Of a stretch of 64,000 bases of DNA, positions 14,478 to 54,491 are shown in pieces. The notes under the pieces are model-generated. The model worked only from the letters and a program-made list of their open reading frames with translations. It searched no databases and was not told the DNA's origin. Position numbers and translations under genes: made by a program. Position 1 is the stretch's first letter, and each line of letters starts with the position of its first letter. This stretch comes from Coleofasciculus sp. D1-CHI-01 (GTDB taxonomy: Bacteria > Cyanobacteriota > Cyanobacteriia > Cyanobacteriales > Coleofasciculaceae). Location of the stretch: NCBI GenBank assembly GCA_040218875.1, contig JAVJQP010000092.1. One strand, given 5' to 3'.

Positions 14478-14490
14478 CGATTTGCCCCTC

Positions 14491-22721: not shown

Positions 22722-22954
22722 CCCACGTGCCACCCGTACTATGGTTTCCCGCAACCCCGCATCGGCTAACTCAGCGTTATCCTGCACAATCTAATCTGTC
22801 CTTCCTCACCATTGGGACAGGTTAATAGGGTATTCATCAGGGTTAGATAGGCTTGTTGGCGTGCGTCATCCATGGGGCAATCAGAAGGCAGGGGAATGGT
22901 TAGGGTTTGAGTATTTCTTTTTTGAATAAGTTTGACGTGATATTCCGTGGACAT
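22722..22954 (-). pseudogene. frameshifted N-terminal fragment of a TPR/CHAT-type cyanobacterial protein
   Basis: AYLTLMNTLLTCPNGEEGQI (frame 1) continues as LQDNAELADAGLRETIVRVA in another frame after a 2-nt shift near 22790. This leader is common at N-termini of cyanobacterial TPR/CHAT proteins. Nothing follows it. Confidence 0.4.
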
Positions 22955-23149
22955 AGTAATTCTTATCGGGTATTGCCAACCCGCGTTAGTTCTCCTATAG
23001 GGGCGACCCGCTTGCACCAATTAACAACGGTGTTTATCTAATTTACTCGGGTCGCCCTTAATTCAAGCCTTGATGGAAAAACTACGAGCTAAGGGTATTG
23101 ATCCAGAACAATTGTAAGTGTGATTGGGATTGATACGGAGTGGCATTCA

Positions 23150-23444
23150 AACTGAAGTTCCCCCAACCAAAAAATCAAAACTGCCTCACCGTGCGGCTTT
23201 CCGCGATTTTTTAGCCGCCGCACATGGGTACAATCGCTGAAACCTTGATGTAGCGTGGGTTTCAACCGATCTCTTGTCATATTGCCAAAATACCGCGTTG
23301 GCGGAGCCTGTTCCAAAGGAACGTATCGCGGTATTTTGGCAAGGGCTACATGGGTACAATTTTTGAGGGGGTTGAGCGCTAAAACCACCACGGAATAAGG
23401 CTTTAGCCTGGGTGCAGTACATCTGTATGGGGGGAACTTCAGTT
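23150..23444. mobile_element. 295-bp non-coding element bounded by perfect 15-bp terminal inverted repeats (MITE-like or structured RNA)
   Basis: aactgaagttccccc (23150-23164) is the exact reverse complement of gggggaacttcagtt (23430-23444). Inside is a perfect 16-bp hairpin, ttgccaaaataccgcg (23282-23297) / cgcggtattttggcaa (23327-23342), and a 13-nt direct repeat acatgggtacaat (23222-23234 and 23348-23360). Confidence 0.45.
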
Positions 23445-23492
23445 CAAAACAGATAGGGGAAATTAACTCAAGTTAGCCAATTCAACGGCTTA

Positions 23493-24731: not shown

Positions 24732-24859
24732 GAAGGGTCTCCTATTTAGCTAGACATGACCGATGGGACTGACAATAATAGATTTATAGTTAATTCATCC
24801 GCTCAATACCTAAATTGAGCTGAGGATTAGATACAGATACACCATTGCCATTGAACAGC
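24732..24859. promoter_or_regulatory. divergent promoter region shared by the two TIR genes
   Basis: A 128-bp AT-rich spacer between divergent starts. No specific boxes were assigned. Confidence 0.35.
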
Positions 24860-26206: not shown

Positions 26207-26216
26207 ATTTTTCTGA

Positions 26217-29200
26217 TTATTGAGTTCTGAGACTATAAATTCTTTCTTTTACATCTGCGATAGAGGATAAGTCTGAAATTTTTATGCTCGTCTCTCGGCG
26301 AATTTGAACCTTGGGATTTATTAGTGACCTCCTAATACACTGGCTTCTGTAAGGATGAGAAAGCCAATTCCAACTTCCGAAAACAGCAAATTTTGTGTCG
26401 CAAATCAAGATCTTTTCATTGGTTCCTTTACTTTCTATATGTATTGCTTCCCCTAATCGAATTAAATCTGAACCTGGATAATGATCAAATAATTCTTTCA
26501 GGTTTTTCTCGGCGTAAACATCATTATTATCATGTTCATTTTCCTCGCTAGTTTTGTGACCATAAACTAGTGTCACCTTCACTCCTCTTTCCAAAGCTGA
26601 AACAACATCATTAACAAAATATTTCGGTTCTTCTCCTCTAATCCAAGGCGTAACAATCACCAGTTCCTGTTCAGCTTGCTCAATTGCTTCTTTCAAAATA
26701 TTTAAATGATCACAATTATAAATCAGCACAGATCCCGGCTGTTGCTTAGGAATTTCAACCTCAGATTTATACTCTAAAATATTTCCCTGGTCTCGAATAT
26801 GTTCAACGAGTTGACGAGTATAATTTCCAGCTTTCTCTAGTCTGTAAAGATTACCCACTAGAATAAACAGTTCTTTAGCTCTCGATACGGCAACATTCAG
26901 AAGGTTGGGACGCCGATTAATCCAAGCAACGTTATCTTGCGGTCGGCACACCTTTGTTGAGAGGATAATTACCTTTTTCTCAGACCCTTGAAAAGCATGA
27001 ATCGTGCCAATAGATTTTTTATCTAAATCAGGCAAATTTCGACGCAAACCGTCCCTTAACGCATCAGCTTGAGCGCGAAACGCTGAAATCACACCAATAT
27101 CTTTTAGTGAGTAGCCTTGATTATATAAATGCTGGATTAAGTCACCTATTGCAGTAACTTCTTCCTGATTAACATTACCTTTAATATTTCCCTCAACATG
27201 ATAAGCAATCAAATTTGATTCTAGCAGTGAAGTAACGGGTGCTGTTTTAACTTCTAATCCATAGTTAGCAATTTTATTGCAATATTGAATAATGCTAGGT
27301 TGACAGCGGTAATGCTCAATCAAACAAATTCCTTTGCCCTTATCGTTGTTTTCTCCTCTTGCTCCTGCGGCGCGATGATAAGAAGTTGCACTATATTCTT
27401 CTGGACTATAACAATGGTAATCAATTTTAGTTAATCCTTTGTCAAGAAACGCTGTGTGAAAGTAGTTATCACGTCTCTGCTCACTCAAAGAGATTACAGG
27501 CTCTATTTGGAAAGGATCTCCAACAATAATAGCTTTGCGCGATCGCACTAACAGAGGAAAGGTCTGATGCAGTGGAATCATTCCGGCTTCATCTATAATT
27601 GTGCGGTCAACACATTCCTCTACCCACGGCAACATATTTCGTATTGAAAGTAATGTACTAGTAATCACTGGAAAAATTAAGCTCGAATATTTAATATTAT
27701 CATCTAAATTTTCTTCCATTTTATATTTATCTTTCCAATTTCCAGAAAGCATATTTACATACAGTTCTAAAGTAGATTTCACACGTTCTTTATAAAGGAG
27801 AGCTTGCTGATCAAGAAACAGCAGCGATAGTTTAAATAACTCTTGGTGCTTGTTATGAAAATTTTCATGAAATGAAGCGTAAAAATCTTCCAGTTCAGTT
27901 TCTAACCTCCGTTCCAAATCACTCAGTTCTGAGCCGATCTCATATCTTTCTCGCTCTCGACTGATTAGAATTTCAGAAATTTCTTGTAATTTTTCTTGTA
28001 CGCTTTTTAGCTCATCTGCTTTATCTAGTCGTTCTCTAACCAACTGCGCCTGTCTTACCAAATCACTGCGATTTTTGGGGGCTTCCACAGGAAAGGAGGT
28101 ACTAAATGTGCTTTGGATTGCGGAATGACAAGCTGACCTCGTATTAGCCAAAATATTTTGTTCTGTTTTGCCAATCAGCCACCGCCATAAACGAATCCAC
28201 CAAGGCAAATTTCCTGCGGGTAACTGTAACTCAGCCGTATCAAAGTGCAACTTAATTTGTCGATAAGCTTCTGTGGGAAATTGTTCATATTCTGCCAAGT
28301 ATTCAACTCGTATCTGAAAATTAATTTTAGCCTTTTTATCTCCATCTAATTGTTCTATAATTGCTTGGTATTTTCGTTTGAAACGAGGCATATTTTGTTC
28401 GGCGAATGATCTTTGGCAACGTAATTCTAAATGAGCCAATTCTTGCTGCCTCAGTTCATCTTTAATAGATTTTATTTGCTGTTTTATCTTAGTACTATGA
28501 TTTGCATTGAAACTAGTTTTTTGCAAGTAATCGATTGCAGCGTTTAACTTTTCGATCGCTCCTCCCGCAGATTTAATGTTAGGTGTGCTTCCTCCTTTAA
28601 GATAGAAAATACGGTTGTTCAAAGATTCATTCAGTTTCTCAATTACGTTTTCAACTGCTTTATTATTAGTGCTGCTAACAACGGTCAAATTATTAATATC
28701 CTCATCATTCTCAACCAGGCTAATTGCACGTTGTACTACCTGTTGAGCAATCAGATGAAGGATTAGAGTAGTTTTCCCAGAGCCGGGAGGACCCTGGACT
28801 GCCGTTACAGGTTCTGTTTGGGCATGTTTTATTGCTGTTAATTGCGAGTTAGTTGGTGCATGGGTTGGGAAAGCTCCCATATAGGTAATCTCATCTTGAT
28901 GATCTTGTGGTGTACCGAATAGATATTCGCGAGCTGGATGTCCTTGTTTCAACCAATATTTTGATCGTGACTTAATATCTTTTAAATCTTTCCGGAGCTT
29001 GCCAGTAAATCTGCCTCCGGTAAACTCAAACAAATATGGCTGTCCCTTAATTTGTTTACCAGAACGACGAGGTATAACAACCCGCTCCATCCACTCCTGA
29101 TAACTATCAAATGTTAGCTCAAACGTTGTTTCGAGAAAGCGTCGCAGTCCATCTTGGGTGATTAATTGCTCTTGCTGTTCATCATCCAGTTTTAGGAATG

Positions 29201-29585
29201 TGGCTAAGTTATATCCTGCTTCCGTGAGTGTCAGGTTATCTAGATTCCATCCATCTTCTCGGTACTCTCCTTTAAGTATGGATGTAATATCCAAGCTAAA
29301 CAGAGGACAAAAATAAGATGTTTTGTTTTCTACATCCAAAATTTGGGGAAACGACAAGACCCAAACAGCTTCCTGTTGATCTTTTGGTCTCTTGGCAACC
29401 TTTTGTTGCAGTTCTGAAAAGATATCTGTCTCAATTAATACATGATCACCTACTAGCTTTATACCCCGCTGTTTTACGGTATCCTGATTGGCTACTTTGA
29501 TTCTGGCGCTACTGTAATCGTCCAAAGCGATGTAGTCAAACCAGGCGTTGAGAATCGCGTCTACCTTGCTTACTTCGTTCAACAT
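26217..29585 (-). CDS. SF1 (Upf1/DNA2-like, COG1112-type) helicase with coiled-coil insertion and C-terminal PLD-like domain; Mokosh type II-like
   Basis: 1122 aa. Walker A GPPGSGKTT, motif II-like IIDEAGM, and late helicase motifs (GTIHAFQGSEKKVIILS, LNVAVSRAK). The C-terminal single HKD-type motif reads N-E-K-ILIC-D-TKFAVF-G-S-W-N (nt 26367-26420). The gene is AT-richer than the flanking genes. Confidence 0.7.
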   Translation of the reverse strand: MLNEVSKVDAILNAWFDYIALDDYSSARIKVANQDTVKQRGIKLVGDHVLIETDIFSELQQKVAKRPKDQQEAVWVLSFPQILDVENKTSYFCPLFSLDITSILKGEYREDGWNLDNLTLTEAGYNLATFLKLDDEQQEQLITQDGLRRFLETTFELTFDSYQEWMERVVIPRRSGKQIKGQPYLFEFTGGRFTGKLRKDLKDIKSRSKYWLKQGHPAREYLFGTPQDHQDEITYMGAFPTHAPTNSQLTAIKHAQTEPVTAVQGPPGSGKTTLILHLIAQQVVQRAISLVENDEDINNLTVVSSTNNKAVENVIEKLNESLNNRIFYLKGGSTPNIKSAGGAIEKLNAAIDYLQKTSFNANHSTKIKQQIKSIKDELRQQELAHLELRCQRSFAEQNMPRFKRKYQAIIEQLDGDKKAKINFQIRVEYLAEYEQFPTEAYRQIKLHFDTAELQLPAGNLPWWIRLWRWLIGKTEQNILANTRSACHSAIQSTFSTSFPVEAPKNRSDLVRQAQLVRERLDKADELKSVQEKLQEISEILISRERERYEIGSELSDLERRLETELEDFYASFHENFHNKHQELFKLSLLFLDQQALLYKERVKSTLELYVNMLSGNWKDKYKMEENLDDNIKYSSLIFPVITSTLLSIRNMLPWVEECVDRTIIDEAGMIPLHQTFPLLVRSRKAIIVGDPFQIEPVISLSEQRRDNYFHTAFLDKGLTKIDYHCYSPEEYSATSYHRAAGARGENNDKGKGICLIEHYRCQPSIIQYCNKIANYGLEVKTAPVTSLLESNLIAYHVEGNIKGNVNQEEVTAIGDLIQHLYNQGYSLKDIGVISAFRAQADALRDGLRRNLPDLDKKSIGTIHAFQGSEKKVIILSTKVCRPQDNVAWINRRPNLLNVAVSRAKELFILVGNLYRLEKAGNYTRQLVEHIRDQGNILEYKSEVEIPKQQPGSVLIYNCDHLNILKEAIEQAEQELVIVTPWIRGEEPKYFVNDVVSALERGVKVTLVYGHKTSEENEHDNNDVYAEKNLKELFDHYPGSDLIRLGEAIHIESKGTNEKILICDTKFAVFGSWNWLSHPYRSQCIRRSLINPKVQIRRETSIKISDLSSIADVKERIYSLRTQ

Positions 29586-40498: not shown

Positions 40499-40560
40499 AC
40501 GCACCTGAAAGCCCCCCAAAAAGTTATCCGGGCGACTATTCACCAGTGTTTAGTCGTCCT

Positions 40561-40770
40561 GTTTGTAGTTTGTCGTTTGTAGTAAGGGATGCGAGCCTAT
40601 CAGCGCGTCAACGTAGGAACTAACAGTTGTATAATTTAACTGTGCAAGGTTAGAGTTTGTAGTAAGGGCTTTAGCCTACTCAGCGCGTCAACGTAGGAAC
40701 TAACCTCAACGTTATATTGGCGCTAAAGCGCAACTACAAGCGCAACTACAAGCGCAACTACAAGCGCAAG
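40561..40770. repeat. REP/REPIN-like repeat block flanking the RAYT gene (left copy)
   Basis: The block starts with GTTTGTA heptamers, followed by two ~45-bp units (gtttgtagtaaggg.t...agcct..cagcgcgtcaacgtaggaactaac). It ends with an inverted arm, ggcgctaaagcgcaactacaag, plus a caactacaagcg tandem. It is about 90% identical to the block at 41367-41576. Confidence 0.85.
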
Positions 40771-40779
40771 GACAAACTT

Positions 40780-41379
40780 ATGTACAACTATCGCTACCTT
40801 ACTCCCATCCAAAAAGCTGAAATCCTTGAATACCGTAGACTTCAAGGCTTTCCTCCTCATTCTCCGCCCCATCCTTTTCAAAATAAACCTTTCTACCTGC
40901 TAACGGCGGCTTGCTACGAACACAAACCCCGTATCAATAGTATCTCTCGTCGTCAGGAACTTTTAGACCAATTATTTAAGAATTTCCTAGACGCAGGTAT
41001 TGAAATCCTCGCCTGGGTCATTTTAACTAATCATTATCATGTATTAGTCAATACCGTTGAGTTTAAGCGGGTGAGTGGTATTTTTCGCCTGATTCATGGT
41101 AGACTGGCTCGTCAGTGGAATCTAGAAGATAAGTTAAGGGGAAAAGTTTGGTATTCTTACTGCGATCGCGCGATTCGTTCGCAACGTCATTATTATGCTA
41201 CTTTAAACTATATCCACTACAATCCGGTGAAACATAATTATGTTGAATCTCCCTATGATTGGGACACAAGTAGTGTTCACTGGTATTTGCAGGAAAGGGG
41301 GCGAGAGTGGTTGAGACAGTGTTGGGTTGGATTTCCTGTTCAAGATTACGGGAAAGAGTGGGATAAGTTTAGTTTGTAG
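40780..41379 (+). CDS. REP-associated tyrosine transposase (RAYT, IS200/IS605-like Y1 HUH enzyme)
   Basis: HUH motif NHYHVLV and catalytic Tyr motif YIHYNPVKH. The preferred start is the ATG at 40780, because the 40717 TTG extension only translates the repeat as NYKR x3. The stop TAG lies inside the right repeat block. Confidence 0.85.
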   Translation: MYNYRYLTPIQKAEILEYRRLQGFPPHSPPHPFQNKPFYLLTAACYEHKPRINSISRRQELLDQLFKNFLDAGIEILAWVILTNHYHVLVNTVEFKRVSGIFRLIHGRLARQWNLEDKLRGKVWYSYCDRAIRSQRHYYATLNYIHYNPVKHNYVESPYDWDTSSVHWYLQERGREWLRQCWVGFPVQDYGKEWDKFSL

Positions 41380-41576
41380 TTTGTAGTTTGTAGTAAGGGA
41401 TGCGAGCCTACTCAGCGCTTCAATGTAGGATCTAACAGTTGTATGATTTAACTGTGCAAGGTTAGAGTTTGTAGTAAGGGATGCGAGCCTATCAGTACTT
41501 CAATGTAGGATCTAACCTCAACGTTATACCGGCGCTAAAGCGCAACTACAAGCGCAACTACAAGCGAAATGTAAAC
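41367..41576. repeat. REP/REPIN-like repeat block flanking the RAYT gene (right copy, direct orientation)
   Basis: Same internal organisation as 40561-40770, with scattered substitutions (cagcgcttcaatgtaggatctaac versus cagcgcgtcaacgtaggaactaac). Confidence 0.85.
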
Positions 41577-41927
41577 TTTATGTTAAAAAAGTAACGAAAA
41601 CTACACGTTATTGGCAATTTAATCAAGTCCCGTGAAATAATCGTAGTAAGGACAAATCGCACCGACTTTAATCTTTTCTAGATCAAGGAGAGATTAAACT
41701 GTTGTTTTGTTTATTGATAAGCGCGATCGCGCCTATATATAAGTTTTGCTTAATTCTAACCCAAAATTACTCAACTGGCGCTGGAGTCTGGACATTAGAG
41801 ACTTGAATCGCCAAGCAAGCTGTGCTGGTGATTAAGTTTCCTGGTTCAATCCCAATCCCAGGGGGCGATTTGTCTGGCGATGAAATTCTCTCTAATTTTA
41901 GTTCAATCCCTTATGAGGAACAATGGA

Positions 41928-43238: not shown

Positions 43239-43306
43239 TTCGGGTTTGCTGAATAAGTGGTGAGGTGAGGGGGAGATGGGGAACAAAATTTCTATAGCCC
43301 ATTACC

Positions 43307-43334
43307 CTGTTTCCTATTCCCTATTCCCTAATCT
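43307..43334. repeat. short heptamer array CT[GA]TT[TC]C
   Basis: ctgtttc ctattcc ctattcc ctaatct in the spacer between gdhA and the RAMP gene. Confidence 0.7.
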
Positions 43335-43403
43335 TGGAGTACGGTTTGTAAGTTGTCTCGGAAACTTAGTATGAATCGTTGCTACATTTGCTACCTTCAC
43401 TTA

Positions 43404-45581
43404 TCACCGACGCTTGGGTGGTTTTGGAGGTCTGGCAAAAGCTGGATTGCCACTTCCCTTATCCTCTCGTCCACCCTCCTTTTTTAGACGAGTGGGCGAT
43501 TTAGATTTTTTAAGCACAGGCTTACTTCCCTTTGCTTTTGGCTGGGGAGATGGATTGGGTTTGTTTATCTTCCGGTTATCTTCCCATCCTATTACTTGTA
43601 AAGGAGTCGGTAGAACGGGACGCTCTTTATACTCATTTTTATCAGTTCCAATCCTTGGCTGGTGATCACGCTCAATTTCCATATATCGTGCTTCATTGCT
43701 GGAAACACCAGACCAACTGAGCATTGCTAGAAGCATCTTGATACGGGGTAATTCTTCTAAAGTTGTGGCTTTACCTGTGTTCGGCTGATCTGCCTCGCTG
43801 ATATGATTGAGGACATACTTTTCAAACGCTTTCACACATCTGTGGTGTGTGTCAGCGGCATCAGATTTTTCTCCGATATGCCAGTTATTATCTTGAAATA
43901 GCTTTTTGTATCGTTGTTTGCGATCACTCAGATGTATCTGATAAGTAATCTTGATGGCTCCCATTCCCAGTGGTTTACCCATGCCAATTGACAGACGATA
44001 CTCTTCCTTTTGTGCAATATTCAGTACCCAAAGGATAGCACCAAGCTCCACATCACTAAGATTCTCAAAATCGATAGTAAATGTAAAAGAGACTCCAGCT
44101 TTAATCGGCTTTATCTGAGTGGTTTGGCTTTCTGAAGCTTCAGGATCATTAAGCACAACTGAAGGCGAACGTCCTTTGTGCCAGTAGAGCTTATGTCCTC
44201 GGATCACTGTTTCCGCTTCTGGTTTATTGGCATAGTGCTTTAATTCGCGCTTTCTTGCTTCTGGGTCAGTTTGAACTAAGTAGTGCTGAAATGTAGTCGG
44301 TTTAGGACTAGCTAAAATCTTAGGCGTAATTGGGTCATTTTTTAACCAGATCTCATCACCAGCCATTCTTTCACAGATGGCATCACTGATAAAGACACGT
44401 CCAGCACGCGCTTGATTTTTTTTCTGTTTTTCATTTCTAACATAGCCAAATATGGTTTCAGCCATATCTAAGATTTCAGCGTTGTGTAAATAGTCGGGAA
44501 CAAAATCAACGGCTGAAGCCGCACGTCCATCACCTGTAGAAGAGTAGGGAACACGAAAATTGGGACTTTGACCAAATAAAGTTACAATTTTTTCTTGCTG
44601 TGGCTGACAGTAAAAAATAGCACGACCCTGTGTTAAAACACCCAATTTTTCGTCAAATGGGTTTTTCTCATAGGGGGCTTTTCCTTTCTGAAAGGTGGTT
44701 AAGGCATGGCAGTAATGCTCAATCGCATCATCACTAATCTTGAGAAGTTTGGCATTGGTGTCAGGTTCTCGAATTAGGCAGTGATTTTTGCGCTGGAGGT
44801 TATCTGGATTATCACTAGCTTCCAACATATTACCACTCGTGACTAATACACCTCTGTATTTGTAAGCCTCACAGTCACTGCTGACATCTTTAGCAAACTG
44901 ACGACCATTTTTAGGATACAAATTCCCAAAACTGATGTTGTATTTATATTGTGGGCGGTAGTCTGAAGATTTCATGGGGATAAGTTCAGTAATTTTCCCA
45001 CACAAGTTTTTTTCTTGAACCAAAATAAACGGTTTATTCTCAATGGCAAGTGCCGGACGAATGTACCAACCATCAGCTTGCTTGGTAAGATAACCTGCCT
45101 TAACCTTTCTTCCCTTATCTAGATACTTTTCATATTCTTTTTTTAACGGTTCATCTTTGTCGGCAGCAACCGCACGGAAAAAAAATCGTTGTTGCTCAGA
45201 TACCTGTTCAAGCTTACCAAAGCTAACAATTTCTACCAAAGTCCGCAACAACCCCCTCAAACTACTACCAGGCAGAGTAGGACGCTGATTTGACGGGGTG
45301 GTGAAGAAATCTGCTCGTTTACGGCGCTGCTCTGAAGTCAAATCTTCATTATTTTTATCCCCAAAATTGGCAAAGTCAGTTGGAGTTAAACCACTCCGAA
45401 TATATAGAGGTGATTCAGTGATTAATGTGCATATAATTTGACCTGTATGCCGATTTGGGCAATATCTTTCATTGTCAGGCAAAGGTTCTGCTGGAACGAT
45501 TGTGTCAGGTAATTCGACAAAATTGTACGGCGCGATCGCCTTACGATCTTCCGGTACTTTTTTGAGATGTTTGGGAAGCAT
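43404..45581 (-). CDS. large CRISPR-associated RAMP protein (TIGR03986-like) with Lys/Pro-rich basic tail
   Basis: 725 aa. N-terminal APYNFVELPD. RAMP signature LPGSSLRGLLRTLVEIVS and G-rich loop SIGMGKPLGMGAIK. The last ~55 aa are basic and low-complexity (KPNPSPQPKAKGSKPVLKKSKSP ... RPPKPPKRR). It is the last gene of the Cas10 operon. Confidence 0.65.
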   Translation of the reverse strand: MLPKHLKKVPEDRKAIAPYNFVELPDTIVPAEPLPDNERYCPNRHTGQIICTLITESPLYIRSGLTPTDFANFGDKNNEDLTSEQRRKRADFFTTPSNQRPTLPGSSLRGLLRTLVEIVSFGKLEQVSEQQRFFFRAVAADKDEPLKKEYEKYLDKGRKVKAGYLTKQADGWYIRPALAIENKPFILVQEKNLCGKITELIPMKSSDYRPQYKYNISFGNLYPKNGRQFAKDVSSDCEAYKYRGVLVTSGNMLEASDNPDNLQRKNHCLIREPDTNAKLLKISDDAIEHYCHALTTFQKGKAPYEKNPFDEKLGVLTQGRAIFYCQPQQEKIVTLFGQSPNFRVPYSSTGDGRAASAVDFVPDYLHNAEILDMAETIFGYVRNEKQKKNQARAGRVFISDAICERMAGDEIWLKNDPITPKILASPKPTTFQHYLVQTDPEARKRELKHYANKPEAETVIRGHKLYWHKGRSPSVVLNDPEASESQTTQIKPIKAGVSFTFTIDFENLSDVELGAILWVLNIAQKEEYRLSIGMGKPLGMGAIKITYQIHLSDRKQRYKKLFQDNNWHIGEKSDAADTHHRCVKAFEKYVLNHISEADQPNTGKATTLEELPRIKMLLAMLSWSGVSSNEARYMEIERDHQPRIGTDKNEYKERPVLPTPLQVIGWEDNRKINKPNPSPQPKAKGSKPVLKKSKSPTRLKKEGGREDKGSGNPAFARPPKPPKRR

Positions 45582-46164
45582 TGTTCAATTCCTTTTCAGT
45601 AGTTAAATCAACAAGACGACTTAGAGAGATACGAGCTACTCCATCATCATCATAGGTAATGTAGTGATGTACAATGAGACGCACTGGGTTAATCAGTTGA
45701 TGGCGATCGCCTAATTCTATCTCACTAAATGGTACGGCGTGTCTGAATCCTTGGGAACCATGCCTAAGTAAGGTAAAGTTATCTCGCTTTTCCCCATGAG
45801 TTCCCCAGAGAATCTGTCTTTCTGGGATTTTGTCTACCTCTGAATTATCTTGGACTAGACGCGATCGCCAAGTTTCACCCGCCCGCCAAAGTAATACTTC
45901 CCCATGTTTACCAAAGATACGGCATTGTTGAAGGGTGAGGACTCGTAGAGATGGAAAATCTACGTTAAACTCAGGCTGGTGAAATATCTGTTCCGCTGTG
46001 GTTAATTTACCTGAATCAAAGCGACCCCAAATTACACCGTCTTCAGCATGAGCTAGCAGATAATTTAGGTTCCAGGTTATCGCTTGTTTTTCTAACCAAT
46101 ATCTAAGCGTTTCATCATCTACAATCCCATCAATAGGAAGCTTTTGGCATAACACTTTGTTCAT
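45541..46164 (-). CDS. csx19: Csx19-like (TIGR03984-like) type III-D accessory protein
   Basis: 207 aa. The call rests on position between two RAMP genes and the LLAHAEDGVIWGR segment, recalled as typical of this cyanobacterial family. Its start overlaps the upstream stop by 4 nt, and its 3' end overlaps the next start by 41 nt. Confidence 0.45.
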   Translation of the reverse strand: MNKVLCQKLPIDGIVDDETLRYWLEKQAITWNLNYLLAHAEDGVIWGRFDSGKLTTAEQIFHQPEFNVDFPSLRVLTLQQCRIFGKHGEVLLWRAGETWRSRLVQDNSEVDKIPERQILWGTHGEKRDNFTLLRHGSQGFRHAVPFSEIELGDRHQLINPVRLIVHHYITYDDDGVARISLSRLVDLTTEKELNNASQTSQKSTGRS

Positions 46165-47630
46165 TCTATCAACTCCCCAGAAAAATCAATCACAAATGCT
46201 TCTAAACCGTTGGCATCACTAATTTGCAGATGTTCTCCATCTTGGAAGATTGTCCAGGTTTGTGTGGCTTTTCCGGGAATCTGTCGTCTCATTTTTGCTT
46301 TGATTCCCTGCAACCGTCCCCGTCCAATACTACTTTCACCCCCAACAGGTAAATCACTTGTCCACAAATCTTTGAGCAATAGGAGTAGTAAACCTATTTC
46401 AGCCTTCCTTGGCTGGCGCAACTCTAGTTCCAAAGTTAGCCGCGTTTCATCACTACCAAATATCGGCTGTTCGCTGAACAAAGCACCGTGGTAAGTACCA
46501 CCTGTAAAACGGTCAATGGCGATGCGGTTTTGCACCAATTCAGCAGTATTTTCGATAACGCTTTCATGTACCACCAGGCGGCTGGCTTTTGCTTGTTTAC
46601 TGTTTTTCTCGACAAAGCCGAATACATCATTGACAATTTTTTGTGCCATTTTCTCGGGCTTGTCCAAGGTATTAACAATACGTTCAGCACGATGGCGTAA
46701 AACACCTGCTAGACTGGTTCCAGATAGCACAGGTTTGAGTTCACCGTCTCGATGCGATCGCAAATGCACCACATCAGGCGCACAACCCGTGGAGTCTTGA
46801 CCTGAGCGAATTAGCAAGGGACTGGCGAGTTTAAACGTAGCTTCGAGGAAGAAGCGATCGCGTTTATCTTCCTCTTCATCTAAAGATACTCCAAAAGCCG
46901 TAGCAATTGACGAATACGTTTCGTATTCTGGTGATAATTCTGTACACCAATGCTCAAATAGTAACCATTCTAATCTTTTCTCATCTTGAGTGAGGTCAAA
47001 TTCCCAGACTTGCCACGCTTTCACTGTACAGCGACCAAAGCCCCGTCGCTTTTTCATCCCAATGCTAATTTCACCAAGTTCTAAGCCTCGTAAGGCTAAC
47101 GCTAGTGATTTAACTAGCCGATCTTCATAATTGAGTTGTTTTGTTTTGTCTCTTTTTTGCTCTACCAGTAGCTCAAAGTAGAGAGGGAATTCAGTTCCAG
47201 CACTTAATAGCTCTAAGTCGTATTTCTGACCTTTTTTGGCTGTACCCGTTTTTCCTTCAATTTCTACTCCATCTCTCAATTCCACAGTGGGTATCTTGCT
47301 ACTGATGGCATCATTCACAATTAATGGACTTTGTTCACCATCATCATTACGACGGGTTCCACCAAATAGGGAAGTAGCGCGATCGCACTCTTGTTCACCT
47401 GTCACATACCCATGCTCATACTCACGTAAGTAATTTCTCAAAGCACCTGCAATAGATGAACCTGTTAAAAGAGCATGGTCACTAATACTATCTCTGAGTA
47501 AGGCTAAATCAGTTGGACTATCTGCATCACCACTTCCCAGACAAGTAGGAGTATCTAAAATTAATGTACCTCGTACAATGATGCATTTAGCAATAGGGCG
47601 TTGGTGGCGGTTCAGGCGTTCAATACTCAT
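46161..47630 (-). CDS. fused double RAMP protein (Cas7-Cas7, Csm3/Cmr4-like)
   Basis: 489 aa with two RAMP modules. Module 1 reads CLGSGDADSPTDLALLRD ... LTGSSIAGALRNYL ... IGMKKRRGFGRC. Module 2 reads LSGTSLAGVLRHRAERI ... GGESSIGRGRL, giving two G-rich loops. Confidence 0.7.
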   Translation of the reverse strand: MSIERLNRHQRPIAKCIIVRGTLILDTPTCLGSGDADSPTDLALLRDSISDHALLTGSSIAGALRNYLREYEHGYVTGEQECDRATSLFGGTRRNDDGEQSPLIVNDAISSKIPTVELRDGVEIEGKTGTAKKGQKYDLELLSAGTEFPLYFELLVEQKRDKTKQLNYEDRLVKSLALALRGLELGEISIGMKKRRGFGRCTVKAWQVWEFDLTQDEKRLEWLLFEHWCTELSPEYETYSSIATAFGVSLDEEEDKRDRFFLEATFKLASPLLIRSGQDSTGCAPDVVHLRSHRDGELKPVLSGTSLAGVLRHRAERIVNTLDKPEKMAQKIVNDVFGFVEKNSKQAKASRLVVHESVIENTAELVQNRIAIDRFTGGTYHGALFSEQPIFGSDETRLTLELELRQPRKAEIGLLLLLLKDLWTSDLPVGGESSIGRGRLQGIKAKMRRQIPGKATQTWTIFQDGEHLQISDANGLEAFVIDFSGELIE

Positions 47631-49198
47631 TAGTTTCTCTCCTTAGTTGCCTTCTTCGCCACTGCCATAATTAGCCGTAGCGTGTACTTTTCAGCTAGCT
47701 TATCTTGTCGGGCGCGATCGTCATCGAATTGGCGCTCTACATCAGCAATTTTGACTTCTATACCATTAATCCAATCTGTCGGATTTTTCAACCACTCCTC
47801 TAGCTGTTGCTTGAAGGATTTATTTCCTATTTTTGTGCGCTCAAACTGATTACGGGCATTAGAAGGTAAGTTATTTAGTAGCGAGACAACTAAACTACAA
47901 TCCCCGTTGGGAAGTGCTTGTCGGGCAACAGATTGCAGTCGTGATAATTGGCTGTTACTCATGCCCTCATCCAAGCTTAAATATCCAACTTGTTTTTGAA
48001 GATATTGTTCTAGCTTTTGCTCCAACAGTCTTTGTGCCATCTGTTCAGCTATCAGCCGCGAACCTTCACTTAACGCAAGTAAGCCAGAGGGACTCGATAA
48101 CTTGGGCAAAATTACTTGAATATATTCACTTTCTATCCAATTTACAGCAATTCGCCCAAAGCCATCTTCTCTTCTCTCTCCAATTCCGCTAGCTTCAAGT
48201 CGCTGAATTTGTTCTGAAGTAATTTCAATATCTTCACCTTCAAAAACAATCACACTCCCTGCTGTTAAAACTGGAACTTGAGGTAAAGGCAATCCCCATT
48301 TGCGGTTAAAGCCACCGATTAGAGTGCTGCTAGTGAAAATACCTCCTGGTTTAGGTTGAGGCAAGGTTATATTTAAAACATCCTCAATTGCTTGTTTAAT
48401 TAAACTTGGATCGGCTACAGGTTGACCCTGATCGTTTCTTAACAGCGTGTCACTGAGAAGGGTAATGCTTAAAACTTCATCATTTTCTCGATCTTCTGCT
48501 GGAATCCCTATTTCACTCCAATTCGTGCTAGATTGTTGGGGGGGGATAATTTTAGTCTGTCCGTATCCCGCACTTTGAGAACCTCCAAACCAGATATTGG
48601 GTTCGACTAATAAATTCTGAATTGTTTCTACATCGTCATCTTCACAAAGAATGATAGATTGAAAGGTTTGTCCTGCATCTAAAGCCTCGTAGCGGAAGAG
48701 TTCACCTTGATTATCTGTCGATCTCCCTTTTTTGCGATCGCGAAAATTATGAATATTAATCCGTCGCTTTTCTTTATATAACTTTACAACTCCTCCTTCC
48801 TTTGCCCAGAAGTATTCACCAACAGCTTTCGGCGTTTCTGGGTCTTCTCCTTTCTCAATACTGAAATCATATACAGTTATAGGCAAATTATCAGTAAATT
48901 CTGCATCCTTATCCTTGAACCAAGACAAAGGTAGAGGAAGAGTTCGTTTATTTTTTTGACTCAAAATATACGCATTTAAGTAGCGAGTCCTTTTAGCATC
49001 AAAGAAAAGTCGCTTCACTTCATCATTGCTTAAATCAAGTTCTGACAAGTGATACTGCCTCATATAACGCCCAATAATTGCACCACGAATCATACTACCA
49101 GGAATATAAGGATATGACACGTCACTATTTGGATCGCCTTGAAATGAAGTAGCAAGAACGGGTTGCTGAGTTTCTAAGGTTAAAATAATGGCTTTCAT
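47630..49198 (-). CDS. csx10: Csx10-like RAMP protein (Cas5/Csm5-position subunit of type III-D)
   Basis: 522 aa. N-terminal YPYIPGSMIRGAIIGRY and G-rich loop SGIGERREDGFGRI. Its stop shares 1 nt with the next start (TAATG). Confidence 0.6.
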   Translation of the reverse strand: MKAIILTLETQQPVLATSFQGDPNSDVSYPYIPGSMIRGAIIGRYMRQYHLSELDLSNDEVKRLFFDAKRTRYLNAYILSQKNKRTLPLPLSWFKDKDAEFTDNLPITVYDFSIEKGEDPETPKAVGEYFWAKEGGVVKLYKEKRRINIHNFRDRKKGRSTDNQGELFRYEALDAGQTFQSIILCEDDDVETIQNLLVEPNIWFGGSQSAGYGQTKIIPPQQSSTNWSEIGIPAEDRENDEVLSITLLSDTLLRNDQGQPVADPSLIKQAIEDVLNITLPQPKPGGIFTSSTLIGGFNRKWGLPLPQVPVLTAGSVIVFEGEDIEITSEQIQRLEASGIGERREDGFGRIAVNWIESEYIQVILPKLSSPSGLLALSEGSRLIAEQMAQRLLEQKLEQYLQKQVGYLSLDEGMSNSQLSRLQSVARQALPNGDCSLVVSLLNNLPSNARNQFERTKIGNKSFKQQLEEWLKNPTDWINGIEVKIADVERQFDDDRARQDKLAEKYTLRLIMAVAKKATKERN

Positions 49199-49206
49199 CC
49201 AACTTT

Positions 49207-49869
49207 TTATTTTTCCTTAATGTCTTTGCCAAAATTATTTAGATGTTGATGGGTAATGTCATTTCCTTCTGAATCGTGTAACCTACATTGAACGTGACCT
49301 CGACCTCGATTACGTCCACTACCTAAGCGTCGGAGTGCCATAGCACCAACAGCTAAAAGCGATAGCATTTCATCATTTGGAGTTTTCTCAAAAATTAAGT
49401 CAGCCGTGAAACAAAGGTCACGTAAAACAACACGGTAGGAACGTAAACTTCCCTCATCTGATGTACCCGATTGTGGGTCTATTGCAGTTTGACGACGGAT
49501 AGTTGTCAGGGAATCAAGCACCTCCGTTTTTGTTAAAGTTTCATCTTGGATTTGGAAGGCAACGGCTTGACGCAAGTCATCGGGTAAACAAGCATCTTCC
49601 ACATGAACTGCTGCCATTGTTCCAAGGGTGCTACCAAGCGTACCGAACAAGTTACAAGCAACCTTCTCCCAATCCTGTTTATACTCAGAAAGTACAGCAA
49701 TTAAGTTATCGCATTCTTCACTCAGTAATCCTTTGAGAGTGCGTCCTCGTAAGTAGGGAAATCCATAAGGATCATGCTCTACTTCTTGATCGATTAAACC
49801 CGCTACTCCATCCCCACGTCCAAAGGTGGTATCACTCAACAGTTTGATTTTCAGTTGATACGTTGACAT
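49207..49869 (-). CDS. RAMP protein, Cas7 (Csm3/Cmr4-like)
   Basis: 220 aa. TTFGRGDGVAGLIDQEV, YLRGRTLKGLLSEEC, and G-rich loop RLGSGRNRGRGHV. Confidence 0.7.
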   Translation of the reverse strand: MSTYQLKIKLLSDTTFGRGDGVAGLIDQEVEHDPYGFPYLRGRTLKGLLSEECDNLIAVLSEYKQDWEKVACNLFGTLGSTLGTMAAVHVEDACLPDDLRQAVAFQIQDETLTKTEVLDSLTTIRRQTAIDPQSGTSDEGSLRSYRVVLRDLCFTADLIFEKTPNDEMLSLLAVGAMALRRLGSGRNRGRGHVQCRLHDSEGNDITHQHLNNFGKDIKEK

Positions 49870-49873
49870 CTGA

Positions 49874-51526
49874 TTATTCCCTCAATGATATATAAAAATC
49901 CATTGCTTCGATAGCATCAAAATAGCCACAAATGCCATTCAGCCAACCTTTTTTAGCTAAATCTGTACTTTGACCGCTAAATTCTGGGAATAGTGGTAGT
50001 TGCTCATCTTTTATTTGGTAGTTTTTGAGGAACTTCTGAGTTGCATCTATCCCTTGACGCAGCACTTCTCGTAAGGCAATAACCTTATTACGACGACCTT
50101 TCCAGTTATCATCTTCGTTAAAATGTTGGACTACTTTTGTGAAACCTTTCCAAGTCCGCCAATCGCTATCTTGTTCTTTTCTCAAACTTATAGGTCGCAT
50201 TTCTAATGAAGCAACTTCCTGGAAATCAGGAATTTTTACGCGATACTCGCGCTCACGAATTTCTGAAATTGAACCGCTTAAGCCACTAGCTGCTAAATGC
50301 CAATCTAAAGCTGAAAAATCTCTTTTGTTTTCATCTTTAACAAACCTTTTTGCATTTCGACACAAGTCTTCGCTAAGTTCATAAGCTCGTGCAAAAGGGT
50401 AATGAGTTTTTACAACGCAAATTCCCGCACAAGCTCTGATAGGCTTGGGCTTGCCATCGGCATCGGCAATGGGTTGTTTTTCCAGTTCTTCAAGATAGAT
50501 TGCTGCCAGTTCAAGCCCTAAGCGTCCATCACAAACAAAAGTAACATCATCACCGCCATAGACGAGAGGACGGAATGGTAAGTAATTATCTTTTATCTCA
50601 AAATAACCTTTGACTTTTTTCTTTCCGTTTTCATCTGTTTGAATCGATTGAACCAGTATCTCTATTACCGTTTTCAGCGCATTAATACCAGCCTGATTAA
50701 CGCTATGGGACAGTTCACGCATAGCAATAATGTAGTCTCGATTGGATTTATCCTTGCCAAACTCTTGAAATCGTTTACCCATACCATTACCATCAGCATG
50801 AATCACAGCAACATAGCTGGAATCTCCTTCTGAACGCCCCATATAGTCAGTTCTTAGGGGAAAATTATAAATCTCGGAAGTCGTGTTGAGTAATTTTTCT
50901 CTAAGTTGACGATTTGCAAAATGAACTGCGTCCAGTTTTTTCTGAATTTCTCTAGAAATTAGATAAGGCTCGTCATCTTCAAATTTTTCACTCATTCCTA
51001 CAGCAACTAATTGAGTCGATCTGCAAGTTGCTGTTACGCTTAAACCTAGTAATGGTGCAGAGGGTATTCTGCTTCGCTTTTTGGCATCCAAATCATTTTT
51101 CATCAAATCCTGAACTACCTGATAAAGAGATTGATTATCCCAATCAAACTCTTTATGGACAGCTACTAAATTGATACCCTGTGCTTCTTCTAAAATTCGC
51201 TTACTCAAAATCTGAGTAAACTGCACGGCATACTGCTTGTCTGAAAAAAGCAATACTGTATTACCGCCACCTGCATAAACTAACTCAGCAGCTAGTTCGT
51301 CATCTTCGATGTGCGGTTTTGCATCTGGTTGATGTTTTTCAGGATCGAATGCGTAAACTTCTTGGTGAATTTGGTCTTTCAACATACCTAAAGCATTTCT
51401 CGCCCAGTTATCAGTTGCTTGAGAAACTAAGTAAGATGCACCAATATTTTCGCGTAGGCGGTTACTCCCAAAAATATAGGGTTGAATCCCAGTTGTATCT
51501 AGTACAGTGACAGTGAATTTTCTCAT
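49874..51526 (-). CDS. cas10: Cas10-like cyclase/polymerase subunit, short form without HD domain
   Basis: 550 aa. The palm-1 motif LDTTGIQPYIF starts at residue 9, followed by YAGGGNTVLLF. Palm 2 reads VIHADGNGMG and then LVYGGDDVTFVCDG (GGDD at nt 50546-50557). The start overlaps the stop of the CARF gene by 4 nt, so there is no room for an upstream HD domain. Confidence 0.75.
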   Translation of the reverse strand: MRKFTVTVLDTTGIQPYIFGSNRLRENIGASYLVSQATDNWARNALGMLKDQIHQEVYAFDPEKHQPDAKPHIEDDELAAELVYAGGGNTVLLFSDKQYAVQFTQILSKRILEEAQGINLVAVHKEFDWDNQSLYQVVQDLMKNDLDAKKRSRIPSAPLLGLSVTATCRSTQLVAVGMSEKFEDDEPYLISREIQKKLDAVHFANRQLREKLLNTTSEIYNFPLRTDYMGRSEGDSSYVAVIHADGNGMGKRFQEFGKDKSNRDYIIAMRELSHSVNQAGINALKTVIEILVQSIQTDENGKKKVKGYFEIKDNYLPFRPLVYGGDDVTFVCDGRLGLELAAIYLEELEKQPIADADGKPKPIRACAGICVVKTHYPFARAYELSEDLCRNAKRFVKDENKRDFSALDWHLAASGLSGSISEIREREYRVKIPDFQEVASLEMRPISLRKEQDSDWRTWKGFTKVVQHFNEDDNWKGRRNKVIALREVLRQGIDATQKFLKNYQIKDEQLPLFPEFSGQSTDLAKKGWLNGICGYFDAIEAMDFYISLRE

Positions 51527-52848
51527 CTCGCATCTCGCTCATTATTGCAAATCCATTCAGCAATTTTGTCTGAAAGATCAAGTAAATCATCACGCCCGAA
51601 TACAGCTAGCTTGTAGTCTATTTTTCCACCTTCCGGAGAAGGATTTAAAACATTTACGATTTCTGTCTCTAGGGCATTAACATCTTTTTCGCTAGTGCAA
51701 CAGACTAAAGCAACTCGTGCTTCATCCCCACCGAGTTGTCGCGCTCTGATATAAGCTTCAAAAAGTTTTGATTTACAATCGAATTTACGCTCTATAGTTG
51801 TACAAGAAATGGCAAATAATTGATAGCCACGCATAAAAGCAACATCAAACTGGAATTTAGTATTTTTCGGATAGATTGGATTCCGAATCCAAAATGAAGT
51901 AGCACTATCGTCAATGGATAGCTCTTTAGGAATATTTTGCACTTGCTGTAAAACATAATGCTCCAGCCATTCACCATCCAGCCATTTGCAAGTAGATTCC
52001 AAGCTTTTCAAACCTTGGTCTTTAACAGTCTGAAGGGATAGTTTTTTAGCGGCTACACCTAACTGAGCTAATGCTTGATTAATAGCCTGATAGTTTTGGA
52101 GTTCAACAGTTTTATTGTCCCTTGTTATTTCTAACCGCAAGTCAGGCAATTCTAGGAGCTTACTTTCGCTTAACCATTTATTTTTATCTTTGGGCTTTCT
52201 AGCAGATTCCCGCAAAACTTGGTTACACCAAGTACGCCATAGTTTTATTAACTGCTCATTTGTATGAAACTCAGCAAAGGCTCGTGCAGCATCAGGTAAC
52301 TCCGGCTGGTAAATAGGCTCTGATTTCTCTTGCCACATCCATCCATGTATTTGAAAAACTTTAGCAAGTTTTACTTCCAGACATTCTGGTTTAACTTTGA
52401 GGCGGATGCGATCGCCATCTTCCCGATCGATACACATCTCTAGCTTGCGTGGATCGAGATAGCTAAAAACAGTGTCGGGACGCTCTTTGCTGAAAACGGC
52501 TCTGTAAGCGTGTACAGCCATCGCTTTTGTACCACCCGTATAATTCAATCCAATTTTTCCCACTTTGATAGCTTCTAGTTTTGGACGAATCGCCTCTTTA
52601 ATATGATAAGCATCGGATTCGTAATCATTAAGTGGCACAAGTTGAGCCGTCTTTAAGCCAATTGGCTCGTTACTCAATATTGTTTGTAAACGCTCCGCTG
52701 GATCTTTTGTACCCTTTGAATAAACCAGATAGGGCGTACCTCCCTTGTTTAACAAGAGTCTGGCTGCTACATAATTAGGCAAGGGATTCTCACCAATGAG
52801 CAAGAACAGATGATCGACTTTGTACTTATTCAACTCAGATGTGTTCAT
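51523..52848 (-). CDS. CARF-domain protein with C-terminal PD-(D/E)xK-like (Card1/Can2-type) fold, first gene of the operon
   Basis: The preferred start is the ATG at 52848 (MNTSELNKYKV). The N-terminal Rossmann-like HLFLLIGENPLPNYVAA and LNYTGGTKAM match CARF signatures. The C-terminal GEWLEHYVLQQV ... FDVAFMRGYQLFAISCTT aligns with the nuclease core of Card1/Can2-type effectors. Confidence 0.6.
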   Translation of the reverse strand: MNTSELNKYKVDHLFLLIGENPLPNYVAARLLLNKGGTPYLVYSKGTKDPAERLQTILSNEPIGLKTAQLVPLNDYESDAYHIKEAIRPKLEAIKVGKIGLNYTGGTKAMAVHAYRAVFSKERPDTVFSYLDPRKLEMCIDREDGDRIRLKVKPECLEVKLAKVFQIHGWMWQEKSEPIYQPELPDAARAFAEFHTNEQLIKLWRTWCNQVLRESARKPKDKNKWLSESKLLELPDLRLEITRDNKTVELQNYQAINQALAQLGVAAKKLSLQTVKDQGLKSLESTCKWLDGEWLEHYVLQQVQNIPKELSIDDSATSFWIRNPIYPKNTKFQFDVAFMRGYQLFAISCTTIERKFDCKSKLFEAYIRARQLGGDEARVALVCCTSEKDVNALETEIVNVLNPSPEGGKIDYKLAVFGRDDLLDLSDKIAEWICNNERDAR

Positions 52849-53054
52849 AGTGGCTAACCTGGGTATGACGTTGCTGCTGGGGTGAGATAGGCGATCGCTC
52901 TTCCTTAATCTAATCCAACTTATCTCCATGGGATTGAGAGGGGGACGAGTCGAGGGCGCGATCGCCTCTGTACCAAAAATTATGCCATCCATTCGGAAAC
53001 ACCCCCTTCCGATACTTGATAGGCTATAAGCCACACTCAACAAAACAAAAACTG
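52849..53054. promoter_or_regulatory. divergent promoter region between the Cas10 operon and the WYL gene
   Basis: A 206-bp spacer between divergent starts, and a natural operator location for a WYL-type regulator. No boxes were assigned. Confidence 0.35.
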
Positions 53055-54491
53055 ATGTCTGATCTATTCTTTCGCCATCCCCCCCAACCTCAACTCCTGC
53101 AACAGTTAGCCAAAGGACTTTTGCCACAAAATCACCATCTCACCCGGGCGATGAGATTATGGGTTTGGCTGCGCTGGCTGTATGGAGATCAGGGATACGC
53201 CACTTTACCCGACAGCTTCACCTACGCCGATTGGCGTCAAGCCTTCTTCAGCTCAACCCATCAGGATGAGAAACAAAACGATATTCTCCAGCACCATGAA
53301 CCCAACTGCGCCTGCACGAAAACCACCAGAGAATGGCTCAAAGAATTGAATATAGCCATTGATGAATGGCAAGAATCCCTACAACAACACCTGTCAATTT
53401 CCGATTCTGACCTGAAAAAATTGCTCCAAGAACGGCTATTTGCTCAAGTTCGTAAATCCCTTCAGAGTGACTTAGATTTACTGGTTGATCTTAACTGGCT
53501 GCAACGAGTTCCTCACTCAACCGGGAGAAGCAAGAACTACCGCCGTGTCCAAGTATTGCCCATTTCTCAGCAACCAGAAAACCGAATCTCTGACAGCAAC
53601 CTGACGCATCAAGAGCAGGTTTATTTGGCAGAAACCGTAGAAATGGTGAGTTTTCTCGACCCCACTATCCCGTTGTTAATTGAGCAAATTTCTCCCCATC
53701 CCCAGGAAGATACTCATCGTGTCTTTTTATACGTTGATTACTTAGTCCCGGAATCCACTCAAAAACAAGACCAAGTGGATCAACTTCAGGGACAATTGCA
53801 GGAAATTTGGGATTCTGGACAAATTTATCCCCTACTCATGACTTATCACAGCGCTCATTTGGGTTTAATCAAAGAATGCGTTGTCTATCCGGTTTGCATC
53901 TATTATATGGAACGGGCAAAATACTTATGTGCCTATGGCAGCACTCCCAAAAGCGAAATCAACTGGCACAATTATCGCCTCGACCGAATTTGCTCAGAGT
54001 GGCTGATGCCATTGGATTGGACTGATCCCCGCGTTCCTCAGTTGTTGCAGGAGCAATACAAGAAGAACCAACTGCCCACGCCCACAACGGTTCACACGAA
54101 GCTGAAACAAGCCTGGGGATTTGATTTCTATAAACCATCAGCGTTGATGGTAATCCGGTTCAACCAGAAGTTTCACGATCACTATATTCGAGGTACGTTC
54201 TTGCATCACACCTTTGCCCCGATTAACTATCAGCAAGCCACCCGTTTCATAAAACAACATACGCCCAATCCCGAACACATAAATACTCTGTTAGACATTC
54301 TTGAACATCGCTCTCCTGATGATGGTTACTACCAAGCTCAATACCGTATTAACGATTATCACGTCATCCGGCGCTTACGGGCTTTAGGTGCAGAGGTAGA
54401 AGTCTTGCTACCTTGGGCATTGCGGGAACGAATCGCTCTCAATCTGCAAGAAACTGGGAACTACTATCGGCACAAAACTTTAACGTTGTAA
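53055..54491 (+). CDS. WYL-domain protein (TIGR03985-like CRISPR-associated putative regulator)
   Basis: The preferred start is the ATG at 53055. The WYL signature AKYLCAYGSTPKSEINWHNYRLDRI is present. It is transcribed divergently from the type III operon. Confidence 0.6.
   Translation: MSDLFFRHPPQPQLLQQLAKGLLPQNHHLTRAMRLWVWLRWLYGDQGYATLPDSFTYADWRQAFFSSTHQDEKQNDILQHHEPNCACTKTTREWLKELNIAIDEWQESLQQHLSISDSDLKKLLQERLFAQVRKSLQSDLDLLVDLNWLQRVPHSTGRSKNYRRVQVLPISQQPENRISDSNLTHQEQVYLAETVEMVSFLDPTIPLLIEQISPHPQEDTHRVFLYVDYLVPESTQKQDQVDQLQGQLQEIWDSGQIYPLLMTYHSAHLGLIKECVVYPVCIYYMERAKYLCAYGSTPKSEINWHNYRLDRICSEWLMPLDWTDPRVPQLLQEQYKKNQLPTPTTVHTKLKQAWGFDFYKPSALMVIRFNQKFHDHYIRGTFLHHTFAPINYQQATRFIKQHTPNPEHINTLLDILEHRSPDDGYYQAQYRINDYHVIRRLRALGAEVEVLLPWALRERIALNLQETGNYYRHKTLTL

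Follow-up and report, generated by a model that had tools for sequence, protein, structure and literature searches.

A type III-D CRISPR effector cassette without adjacent array or cas6 in Coleofasciculus sp. D1-CHI-01, probably supplied with crRNAs in trans

Among the described systems closest to the locus reported here is the type III-Dv CRISPR complex of Synechocystis sp. PCC 6803 (PDB 8S9T/8BMW), which holds a 37-nt CRISPR RNA (crRNA) derived by Cas6-2a and in which Csx19 is a structural subunit essential for assembly (Schwartz et al. 2024, PMC11026444). A model for crRNA supply in trans is offered by Anabaena 7120, a filamentous cyanobacterium whose arrays are fragmented around the chromosome, where the III-D Cas6 (Alr1482) was found experimentally to process orphan arrays at remote sites (Reimann et al. 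2020, bioRxiv 10.1101/2020.04.14.041012, which cites Hou et al. 2019). A further variant, type III-D2 (PMC13294483), comprises Cas7x3, a Cas7-5 fusion, CorA, a toxin-antitoxin module and signalling by S-adenosylmethionine-AMP (SAM-AMP), Csx19 not being among its listed components. Here we describe a III-D effector operon with a divergent regulator gene, at 43241-54491 of a 64-kb stretch of DNA from the mat-forming cyanobacterium Coleofasciculus sp. D1-CHI-01 (contig JAVJQP010000092.1, hereafter the window), that carries neither an array nor cas6. We consider it likely that this is a conventional crRNA-guided III-D effector cassette, split from its array and cas6, which receives its crRNAs in trans, and it probably shares the Cas6 and array of a III-B system resident in the same genome.

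The analysis covered the cassette region (43404-54491) as well as the rest of the window and its flanks. The open reading frame (ORF) map reproduces what the initial annotation had described, namely a seven-gene minus-strand operon running from 52848 down to 43404, from a CARF gene to that of a 725-aa RAMP protein, with start/stop overlaps of 4, 1, 4 and 41 nt (the last shared by the Csx19 and Cas7-insertion genes), a plus-strand WYL gene (53016/53055-54491) that diverges from it, and spacers of 165 bp to gdhA and 7 bp to a cNMP-binding gene. The operon has the same parts in the same order as Synechocystis III-Dv, with a Cas10 that retains GGDD but no working HD domain, Cas7, Cas5, Cas7-2x, Csx19 and Cas7-insertion. 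Window proteins match chains A, C, D and E of the solved complex, although these matches are moderate only, being local alignments with phmmer E values from 1e-8 to 1e-31. The family calls of the initial annotation (Cas10, Csx10, TIGR03984/03986, CARF and the TIGR03985 WYL protein) are borne out by profile searches, with Csx10 below its curated cut-off.

Cas10 (49874-51526, minus strand, 550 aa) is matched over its full length by PADLOC Cas10d (512.9 bits) and aligns to 8s9t_C at 1.6e-31. The HD domain is absent, the N-terminus beginning directly at the DTTGIQ motif, whereas the cyclase palm is intact, its HADGNGMG and YGGDDV motifs being invariant in 19 Cas10 homologs, in line with the GGDD noted at the outset. 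The stand-alone Cas7 (49207-49869, minus, 220 aa; Pfam RAMPs 59.5 bits) aligns to residues 5-204 of 8s9t_A, its Cas7 domain, with D27 facing the catalytic D26, and Cas7-2x (46161-47630, minus, 489 aa), with two fused Cas7 domains recovered as two Pfam RAMPs stretches (135 bits), matches the 8s9t_D chain of the same name at 2.7e-23, with D41 facing D33 of the mutated D29/D31/D33 cluster; catalytic residues (D27 and D41) are retained in both. Csx10, a Cas5 variant (47630-49198, minus, 522 aa), scores 159.7 bits against TIGR02674, under the curated cut-off of 177.3 despite an E value of 1.2e-46, and matches PADLOC Cas5_IIId at 9.1e-56. Its residues 147-353 align with residues 381-588 of 8s9t_A, the Cas5 part of the Cas7-Cas5-Cas11 fusion, and its C-terminal third is possibly Cas11-like. 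Csx19 (45541-46164, minus, 207 aa) is recognised by TIGR03984 (124.3 bits, cut-off 35), and the Cas7-insertion subunit, the TIGR03986-family RAMP protein (43404-45581, minus, 725 aa), by its own family model (420.7 bits, cut-off 161), with the III-D2 chain 9wxh_D as best PDB match (1.5e-19) and 8s9t_E at 1.3e-12.

Concerning classification, the operon combines the Cas10 palm, Csx10, Csx19, several Cas7 domains with their aspartates and the TIGR03986 protein, and on this content the effector is assigned to the Csx19-containing III-D1/III-Dv lineage; an adjacent array and cas6, which are typical of III-D but do not define it, are lacking in the 64 kb and its flanks. Cas7 and Csx10 are separate genes here, whereas in Synechocystis III-Dv they form one Cas7-Cas5-Cas11 fusion, so that judged by its gene layout the architecture is intermediate between III-D1 and III-Dv. 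The TIGR03986-family protein and a Cas10 without HD recall III-D2, but the gene content differs from the definition of that type, and Csx19, Cas7-2x and a CARF effector point to cyclic oligoadenylate (cOA) rather than to SAM-AMP.

The accessory protein is also distinct, a CARF plus PD-(D/E)xK nuclease in the window against Csm6/Csx1 in Synechocystis. This Can2/Card1-like (DUF1887) protein (51523-52848, minus, 441 aa from the ATG at 52848) has an N-terminal CARF and a C-terminal PD-(D/E)xK nuclease domain, and matches PADLOC CARF4--CARF_PDDEXK along its whole length (514 bits), Pfam Card1_endonuc PF09002 (35.6 bits, cut-off 26.4) and, under the cut-off of 24.6, CARF_Card1 PF23400 (21.7 bits). 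Among PDB structures the DUF1887 protein 8q3y is matched across both domains (4.6e-27), and Can2 (7bdv) is matched too, hence cOA signalling is implied; family membership and the intact GGDD suggest that the nuclease may be activated by cyclic tetra-adenylate made by Cas10. The divergent gene (53055-54491, plus, 478 aa from the ATG at 53055) encodes a WYL/WCX-domain CRISPR-associated regulator with a full-length match to TIGR03985 (287.4 bits, cut-off 60) and to PADLOC HTH-WYL (582.9 bits). Between it and the operon lies a 52849-53054 intergenic region, presumed from its position to hold the promoters of both, in which the Rfam and III-D repeat-core scans show no repeat or RNA family.

What sets the locus apart from Synechocystis III-Dv is the absence of adjacent cas6-2a, cas1, cas2 and array, and here the initial annotation holds. 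Four independent scans (Tandem Repeats Finder, two k-mer scans and a repeat finder) revealed no repeat-spacer array in the 64 kb, the III-D repeat core is not found in the window even when 3 mismatches are allowed, and Rfam has no match in it. A PADLOC scan of the 78 ORFs of at least 75 aa outside the operon yields no Cas6, Cas1 or Cas2 among the best 25 of 34 families (the other 9 having E > 8e-6), and tblastn with Cas6, Cas1, Cas2, Cas4, Cas3' and Cas10d queries gives no match on the window. The suggestion that a cognate array with cas6 might lie just past the window edges is not borne out either, since contigs reaching ~3.1 kb beyond the left and 7.3 kb beyond the right edge contain no array and no cas gene. 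One of the 78 ORFs does match PADLOC 'CARF3--CARF' (E 4.3e-8); it lies outside the 20 ORFs that were rescanned individually.

The accompanying claim that the only tandem repeats are contiguous micro-arrays stands as far as CRISPR arrays are concerned but fails in its detail, because repeats spaced by 80 nt exist at 40.56-41.58 kb. These, the only spaced repeats of the window, were rejected as an array, being the flanks of a REP (repetitive extragenic palindrome)-associated tyrosine transposase. The transposase gene (40780-41379, NF047646 91.8 bits, in the region 40560-41580) is bracketed by two direct-repeat modules of ~190 nt, each made of the 80-nt duplicated unit plus (AAGCGCAACTAC)n; a sister genome (L006, see below) lacks the gene together with one module, which indicates a recent insertion.

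A Cas6 and an array were found elsewhere in the same genome. By cluster look-up, a 108-kb contig of D1-CHI-01 encodes Cas6 P0279 (MEQ8536844.1), Csx3 (MEQ8536842.1) and a III-B RAMP protein (MEQ8536832.1), and in the DNA around an exact copy of this Cas6 (L220) cas6 is followed by an Imm30-domain gene, then by an array, then by csx3 and the cas10 of the III-B cassette. This array consists of 11 repeats of CTTGACAAGCCCACTTCCCCGAAAGGGGATGGAAAC separated by spacers of 32-40 nt; the repeat, in short form CTTGACAA...GGGGATGGAAAC, is 36 nt long, with a CCCC-N4-GGGG stem and the 8-nt tag ATGGAAAC. The same Cas6, again with an array, is found in two assemblies in which the window's strain is also present (L221 with L008, L224 with L009). 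Cas6 P0279 is 58-60% identical to Cas6 proteins beside III-D modules, against 25-29% to I-D Cas6, and by this comparison is of the III-D-linked type; the solo Cas6 family here is expected to be of the Alr1482 type. The tag of the repeat combines variants found in arrays that adjoin III-D modules (ACTGAAAC, ACGGAAAC and ATTGAAAC). The arrays of the survey described below all belong to one family (35-37 nt, CCCC-N4-GGGG stem, one of these three tags), which is also that of the Synechocystis III-Dv repeat (...CCCCGTCAGGGGACTGAAAC).

The same arrangement is seen on the 7.78-Mb chromosome Ga0573880_002 of a relative, where a 374-aa Cas6, two short arrays and csx3 precede a III-B cassette at ~2.93-2.95 Mb and an orthologous array-less III-D operon lies at 4.22-4.24 Mb, ~1.3 Mb from the cas6-array locus. 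A metagenome scan for the repeat core (at least 120 stretches) also gave a contig from a sample that holds the window's strain (L100), whose RAMP protein clusters at at least 90% identity with proteins of D1-CHI-01, PCC 7420 and the 7.78-Mb chromosome. At 397-640 of this Elkhorn Slough contig, after the distal end of the III-B cassette, there are two or three repeats of the family, degenerate and unevenly spaced, probably a decayed mini-array, with no counterpart at the same place on Ga0573880_002 (L216).

Spacers differ between strains, hence the arrays turn over. They gave no match in the window, the fetched loci or the INPHARED phages, and one spacer tried against IMG/VR gave none. A search for homologs of the Cas6 of [Phormidium] sp. 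LEGE 05292 (L028) returned no Coleofasciculus among the best 120 of 1,269 matches. The literature search on CRISPR in PCC 7420 yielded nothing, and an ISME J paper mentioning Csx19 was set aside as concerning another organism.

Of the two explanations offered by the initial annotation, crRNAs borrowed from a distant array is therefore well supported, by the Cas6 and array in the same metagenome-assembled genome (MAG), the Ga0573880_002 loci and the Anabaena precedent; the compatible array elsewhere, which had been raised as what would make the locus an ordinary effector, exists as far as the DNA can tell. The guided reading is favoured because the subunits match either the crRNA-guided 8S9T complex or curated III-D families and keep their catalytic residues. 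Several points weigh against the account as a whole. That crRNAs from the distant array are loaded into the III-D complex is something we infer; the III-B cassette that adjoins the array with the III-D-linked Cas6 may be the main user of this array, or the only one; no III-D module of the survey is accompanied by the exact tag ATGGAAAC; Csx19 has no match in the PDB sequence search, the solved Csx19 chain included; and neither cas1 nor cas2 of the D1-CHI-01 genome was located. The linkage of the III-D contig to the cas6-array contig is by MAG binning; that the two occur together in the same assemblies backs it, as does a relative's closed chromosome of 7.8 Mb. The parallel with Anabaena is also incomplete, since its III-D cassette retains cas6 and two arrays alongside, whereas neither is present beside the window cassette and the one cas6 that was located adjoins III-B.

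In the mechanism that we propose, the Cas6 of the distant locus would cut the pre-crRNA of its neighbouring array, in which each 36-nt repeat ends in the 8-nt tag, and Csx10 (Cas5), Csx19, Cas7, Cas7-2x and Cas7-insertion would bind the crRNA together with Cas10. Pairing with a foreign transcript would then let the Cas7 aspartates cleave RNA and would switch on the GGDD cyclase of Cas10. The cyclic oligoadenylate so made, presumably the messenger, would activate the co-encoded Can2/Card1-type nuclease to degrade nucleic acid, while the WYL protein may regulate transcription of the divergent operon.

How common such array-less loci are was assessed among GTDB species representatives, where 389 relatives were found and the best 80 kept, 51 of the loci having full 10-kb flanks around cas10. 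It should be noted that a flank of this size, counted from cas10, extends only ~4 kb past the RAMP gene and ~7 kb past the WYL gene. Within it, a true array is present in about a third of the loci (~17/51) and a Cas6 detectable with the queries used in 4/51. The absence of a nearby array is hence normal for the clade, and the initial annotation put it too strongly in placing cyanobacterial III-D loci as a rule next to cas6 and an array. According to the 2025 classification (PMC12669027), arrays are missing from most III-B, III-C, III-E and III-F loci, and all type III subtypes include array-less exceptions.

In the closest clade (Cas10 78-86% identical; Microcoleus, Limnoraphis, Kastovskya, Tychonema), the complete arrangement occurs only in L028, whose Cas10 is 86% identical to that of the window and in which an array of 31 repeats, cas6, csx3 and the WYL gene are followed by the divergent CARF gene, cas10 to cas7-insertion and a type I-D cas3'. 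The same module, with CARF gene as in the window, is found on plasmids of Anabaena cylindrica PCC 7122, Nostoc sp. ATCC 53789 and Planktothrix agardhii (L013-L015), where it adjoins a whole type I-D system with cas6, cas4, cas1, cas2 and arrays; the TIGR03985 gene is divergent likewise in L014, L015 and L028. In these loci an array, cas6 and csx3 lie past the WYL gene, or a full type I-D system comes after the RAMP gene, or both; the window cassette is instead abutted by chromosomal backbone genes, gdhA and the cNMP-binding gene.

Such neighbours raise the question of whether the crRNAs come in trans from some other source, a type I-D or orphan array, perhaps through another Cas6 or a host RNase. 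The physical linkage of the module to type I-D in L028 and on the plasmids speaks for this, as does the single repeat that the III-D module and I-D have in common in A. cylindrica; RNase-based crRNA maturation is described for Synechocystis (PMC12464536). We nevertheless regard this alternative as improbable, given that the Coleofasciculus DNA retrieved holds no I-D genes or further arrays and that the Cas6 found is specifically of the III-D-linked type.

The extent of the cassette and its state of preservation can be read from related genomes. The Cas10 is 100% identical to a protein that NCBI lists under the MAG D1-CHI-01, and contigs of the window's strain come also from ENA assemblies and from mat metagenomes of Elkhorn Slough; for the 208-aa gene at the window edge an exact look-up gave no record. 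In the sister MAG L006 (GCA_040221695.1) the flanks are 95-97% identical to the window by blastn and the cassette is absent. Homology stops at 43240, two bases past the gdhA stop (43238), and restarts at 54492, one base past the WYL stop (54491), with 1.1 kb between the breakpoints in L006. These sharp breakpoints define the operon and WYL gene (43241-54491, 11,251 bp) as one discrete unit. The empty site, at 2824-3444 of L006 (the equivalent of 43241-54491), holds a lone gene for a 206-aa CRISPR-associated PD-(D/E)xK protein (PADLOC PDLC01472, 5.5e-44), which makes the gdhA/cNMP junction a variable slot for defence-related genes.

In the Coleofasciculus chthonoplastes-like genomes L010-L012, of which L011 is situated on a 7.78-Mb contig, the cassette shares the cNMP-binding, HEAT-repeat and infC junction with the window and the far flank differs; no array or cas6 is present within 10 kb. 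Between these two array-less lineages (window versus L011), the ratio of nonsynonymous to synonymous substitution rates (dN/dS) is 0.12-0.26 for Cas10, Cas7, Csx10, Cas7-2x and Cas7-insertion. The WYL gene gives 0.16, and the highest values are those of CARF (0.30) and Csx19 (0.38). Such low values show that the array-less cassette is maintained by purifying selection.

Concerning individual genes, the CARF gene is mosaic between strains. In L008, whose flanks are 99.4% identical, the middle part differs and the product has 538 aa (window 51858-52739; L008 456-1496; L010/L011 9220-9921), and Coleofasciculus orthologs share ~93% DNA identity in the N-terminal part and ~69% in the C-terminal half, as of an accessory gene swapped through recombination. 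In L010/L011 (15330-16894, at the equivalent of window 45604-45711) the 3' end of csx19 has taken up a Uma2-family gene; ~108 nt are duplicated, and what remains is a 193-aa Csx19 plus a 94-aa fragment that still overlaps the RAMP gene. In a comparison across genera (operon 43404-51526), Cas10, Cas7 and Csx10 share 77-88% identity with their Phormidium, Kastovskya and Microcoleus counterparts (L016, L018, L028), with dS of only 0.3-0.9, while Cas7-insertion is just 38-51% identical in the same tblastn comparison, with saturated dS, and the WYL dS is saturated in two of the three. These sequence comparisons suggest that the cas10-csx10 segment was exchanged horizontally and recently, and that the operon is mosaic across genera.

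These data also bear on whether the cassette could be an inactive relic, an orphaned and unused remnant heading for decay. It is dispensable, being missing in L006, its csx19 3' end is broken by the Uma2 insertion in L010-L012, and its CARF gene is mosaic, all of which would fit such a fate. All eight ORFs are, however, intact, four gene junctions overlap, the catalytic motifs are invariant, and dN/dS remains at 0.12-0.26 for the Cas10 and Cas7/Csx10 genes and does not exceed 0.38 for any gene; in addition, an exact copy of the Cas10-Cas7 segment is present in a Logan run, the exact look-up of Cas10 giving a 2.5-kb contig only, and a contig from Elkhorn Slough matches the WYL end with 99.8% DNA identity. 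A relic is, on balance, an unlikely account.

The second explanation of the initial annotation, a guide-independent or differently guided module presented as new biology, in which stress or a non-CRISPR RNA rather than a crRNA-target duplex would trigger the second messenger and the complex of Coleofasciculus and its array-less relatives would act apart from Cas6-processed crRNAs as a cOA/CARF suicide or dormancy switch, found no positive support and is very improbable: although the 64 kb and flanks lack array, cas6, cas1 and cas2, although most close relatives likewise lack a nearby array, and although the array-less state is kept at the same chromosomal position where Cas10 is 85% identical and purifying selection persists, the crRNA-handling subunits (Cas5/Csx10, Csx19, five Cas7 domains) and RNA-cleavage aspartates, needless in an unguided complex, are conserved, a compatible Cas6 and array exist in the same genome, close homologs (L028, the plasmid loci) adjoin arrays, and the cassette shows no alternative structured RNA or repeat in the Rfam and repeat-core scans.

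Elsewhere the window consists of ordinary cyanobacterial chromosomal DNA, including petH, prk, ftsH, gdhA and infC. A small defence islet at 22181-29585 encodes, besides a Uma2-family protein, a caspase-TIR protein (23493-24731), one with TIR and FGE-sulfatase domains (24845-26206) and a helicase-PLD protein of 1122 aa that matches Mokosh MkoC (PADLOC 9.2e-105). The match of FtsH to IetA/TRIP13 and those of cNMP domains to Pycsar effectors are domain-level only and were discarded as false leads. At 14486-14606, 13.4 copies of the 9-nt tandem repeat CCCCCGGCT separate the end of a two-domain glutaminase gene (12360-14477) from an asparagine synthase gene (14606-16108).

Understood as a guided III-D effector with crRNA supply in trans, the locus is a further case of type III effectors split from arrays and sharing crRNAs, as known from the CRISPR loci of filamentous cyanobacteria. 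It offers a clear-cut case of an effector-only cassette of 11.25 kb that is either present or absent in a fixed chromosomal slot, together with an architecture between III-D1 and III-Dv in which Cas7 is not fused to Cas5-Cas11. It would thus provide a natural test case for whether III-D and III-B complexes share one Cas6 and one array.

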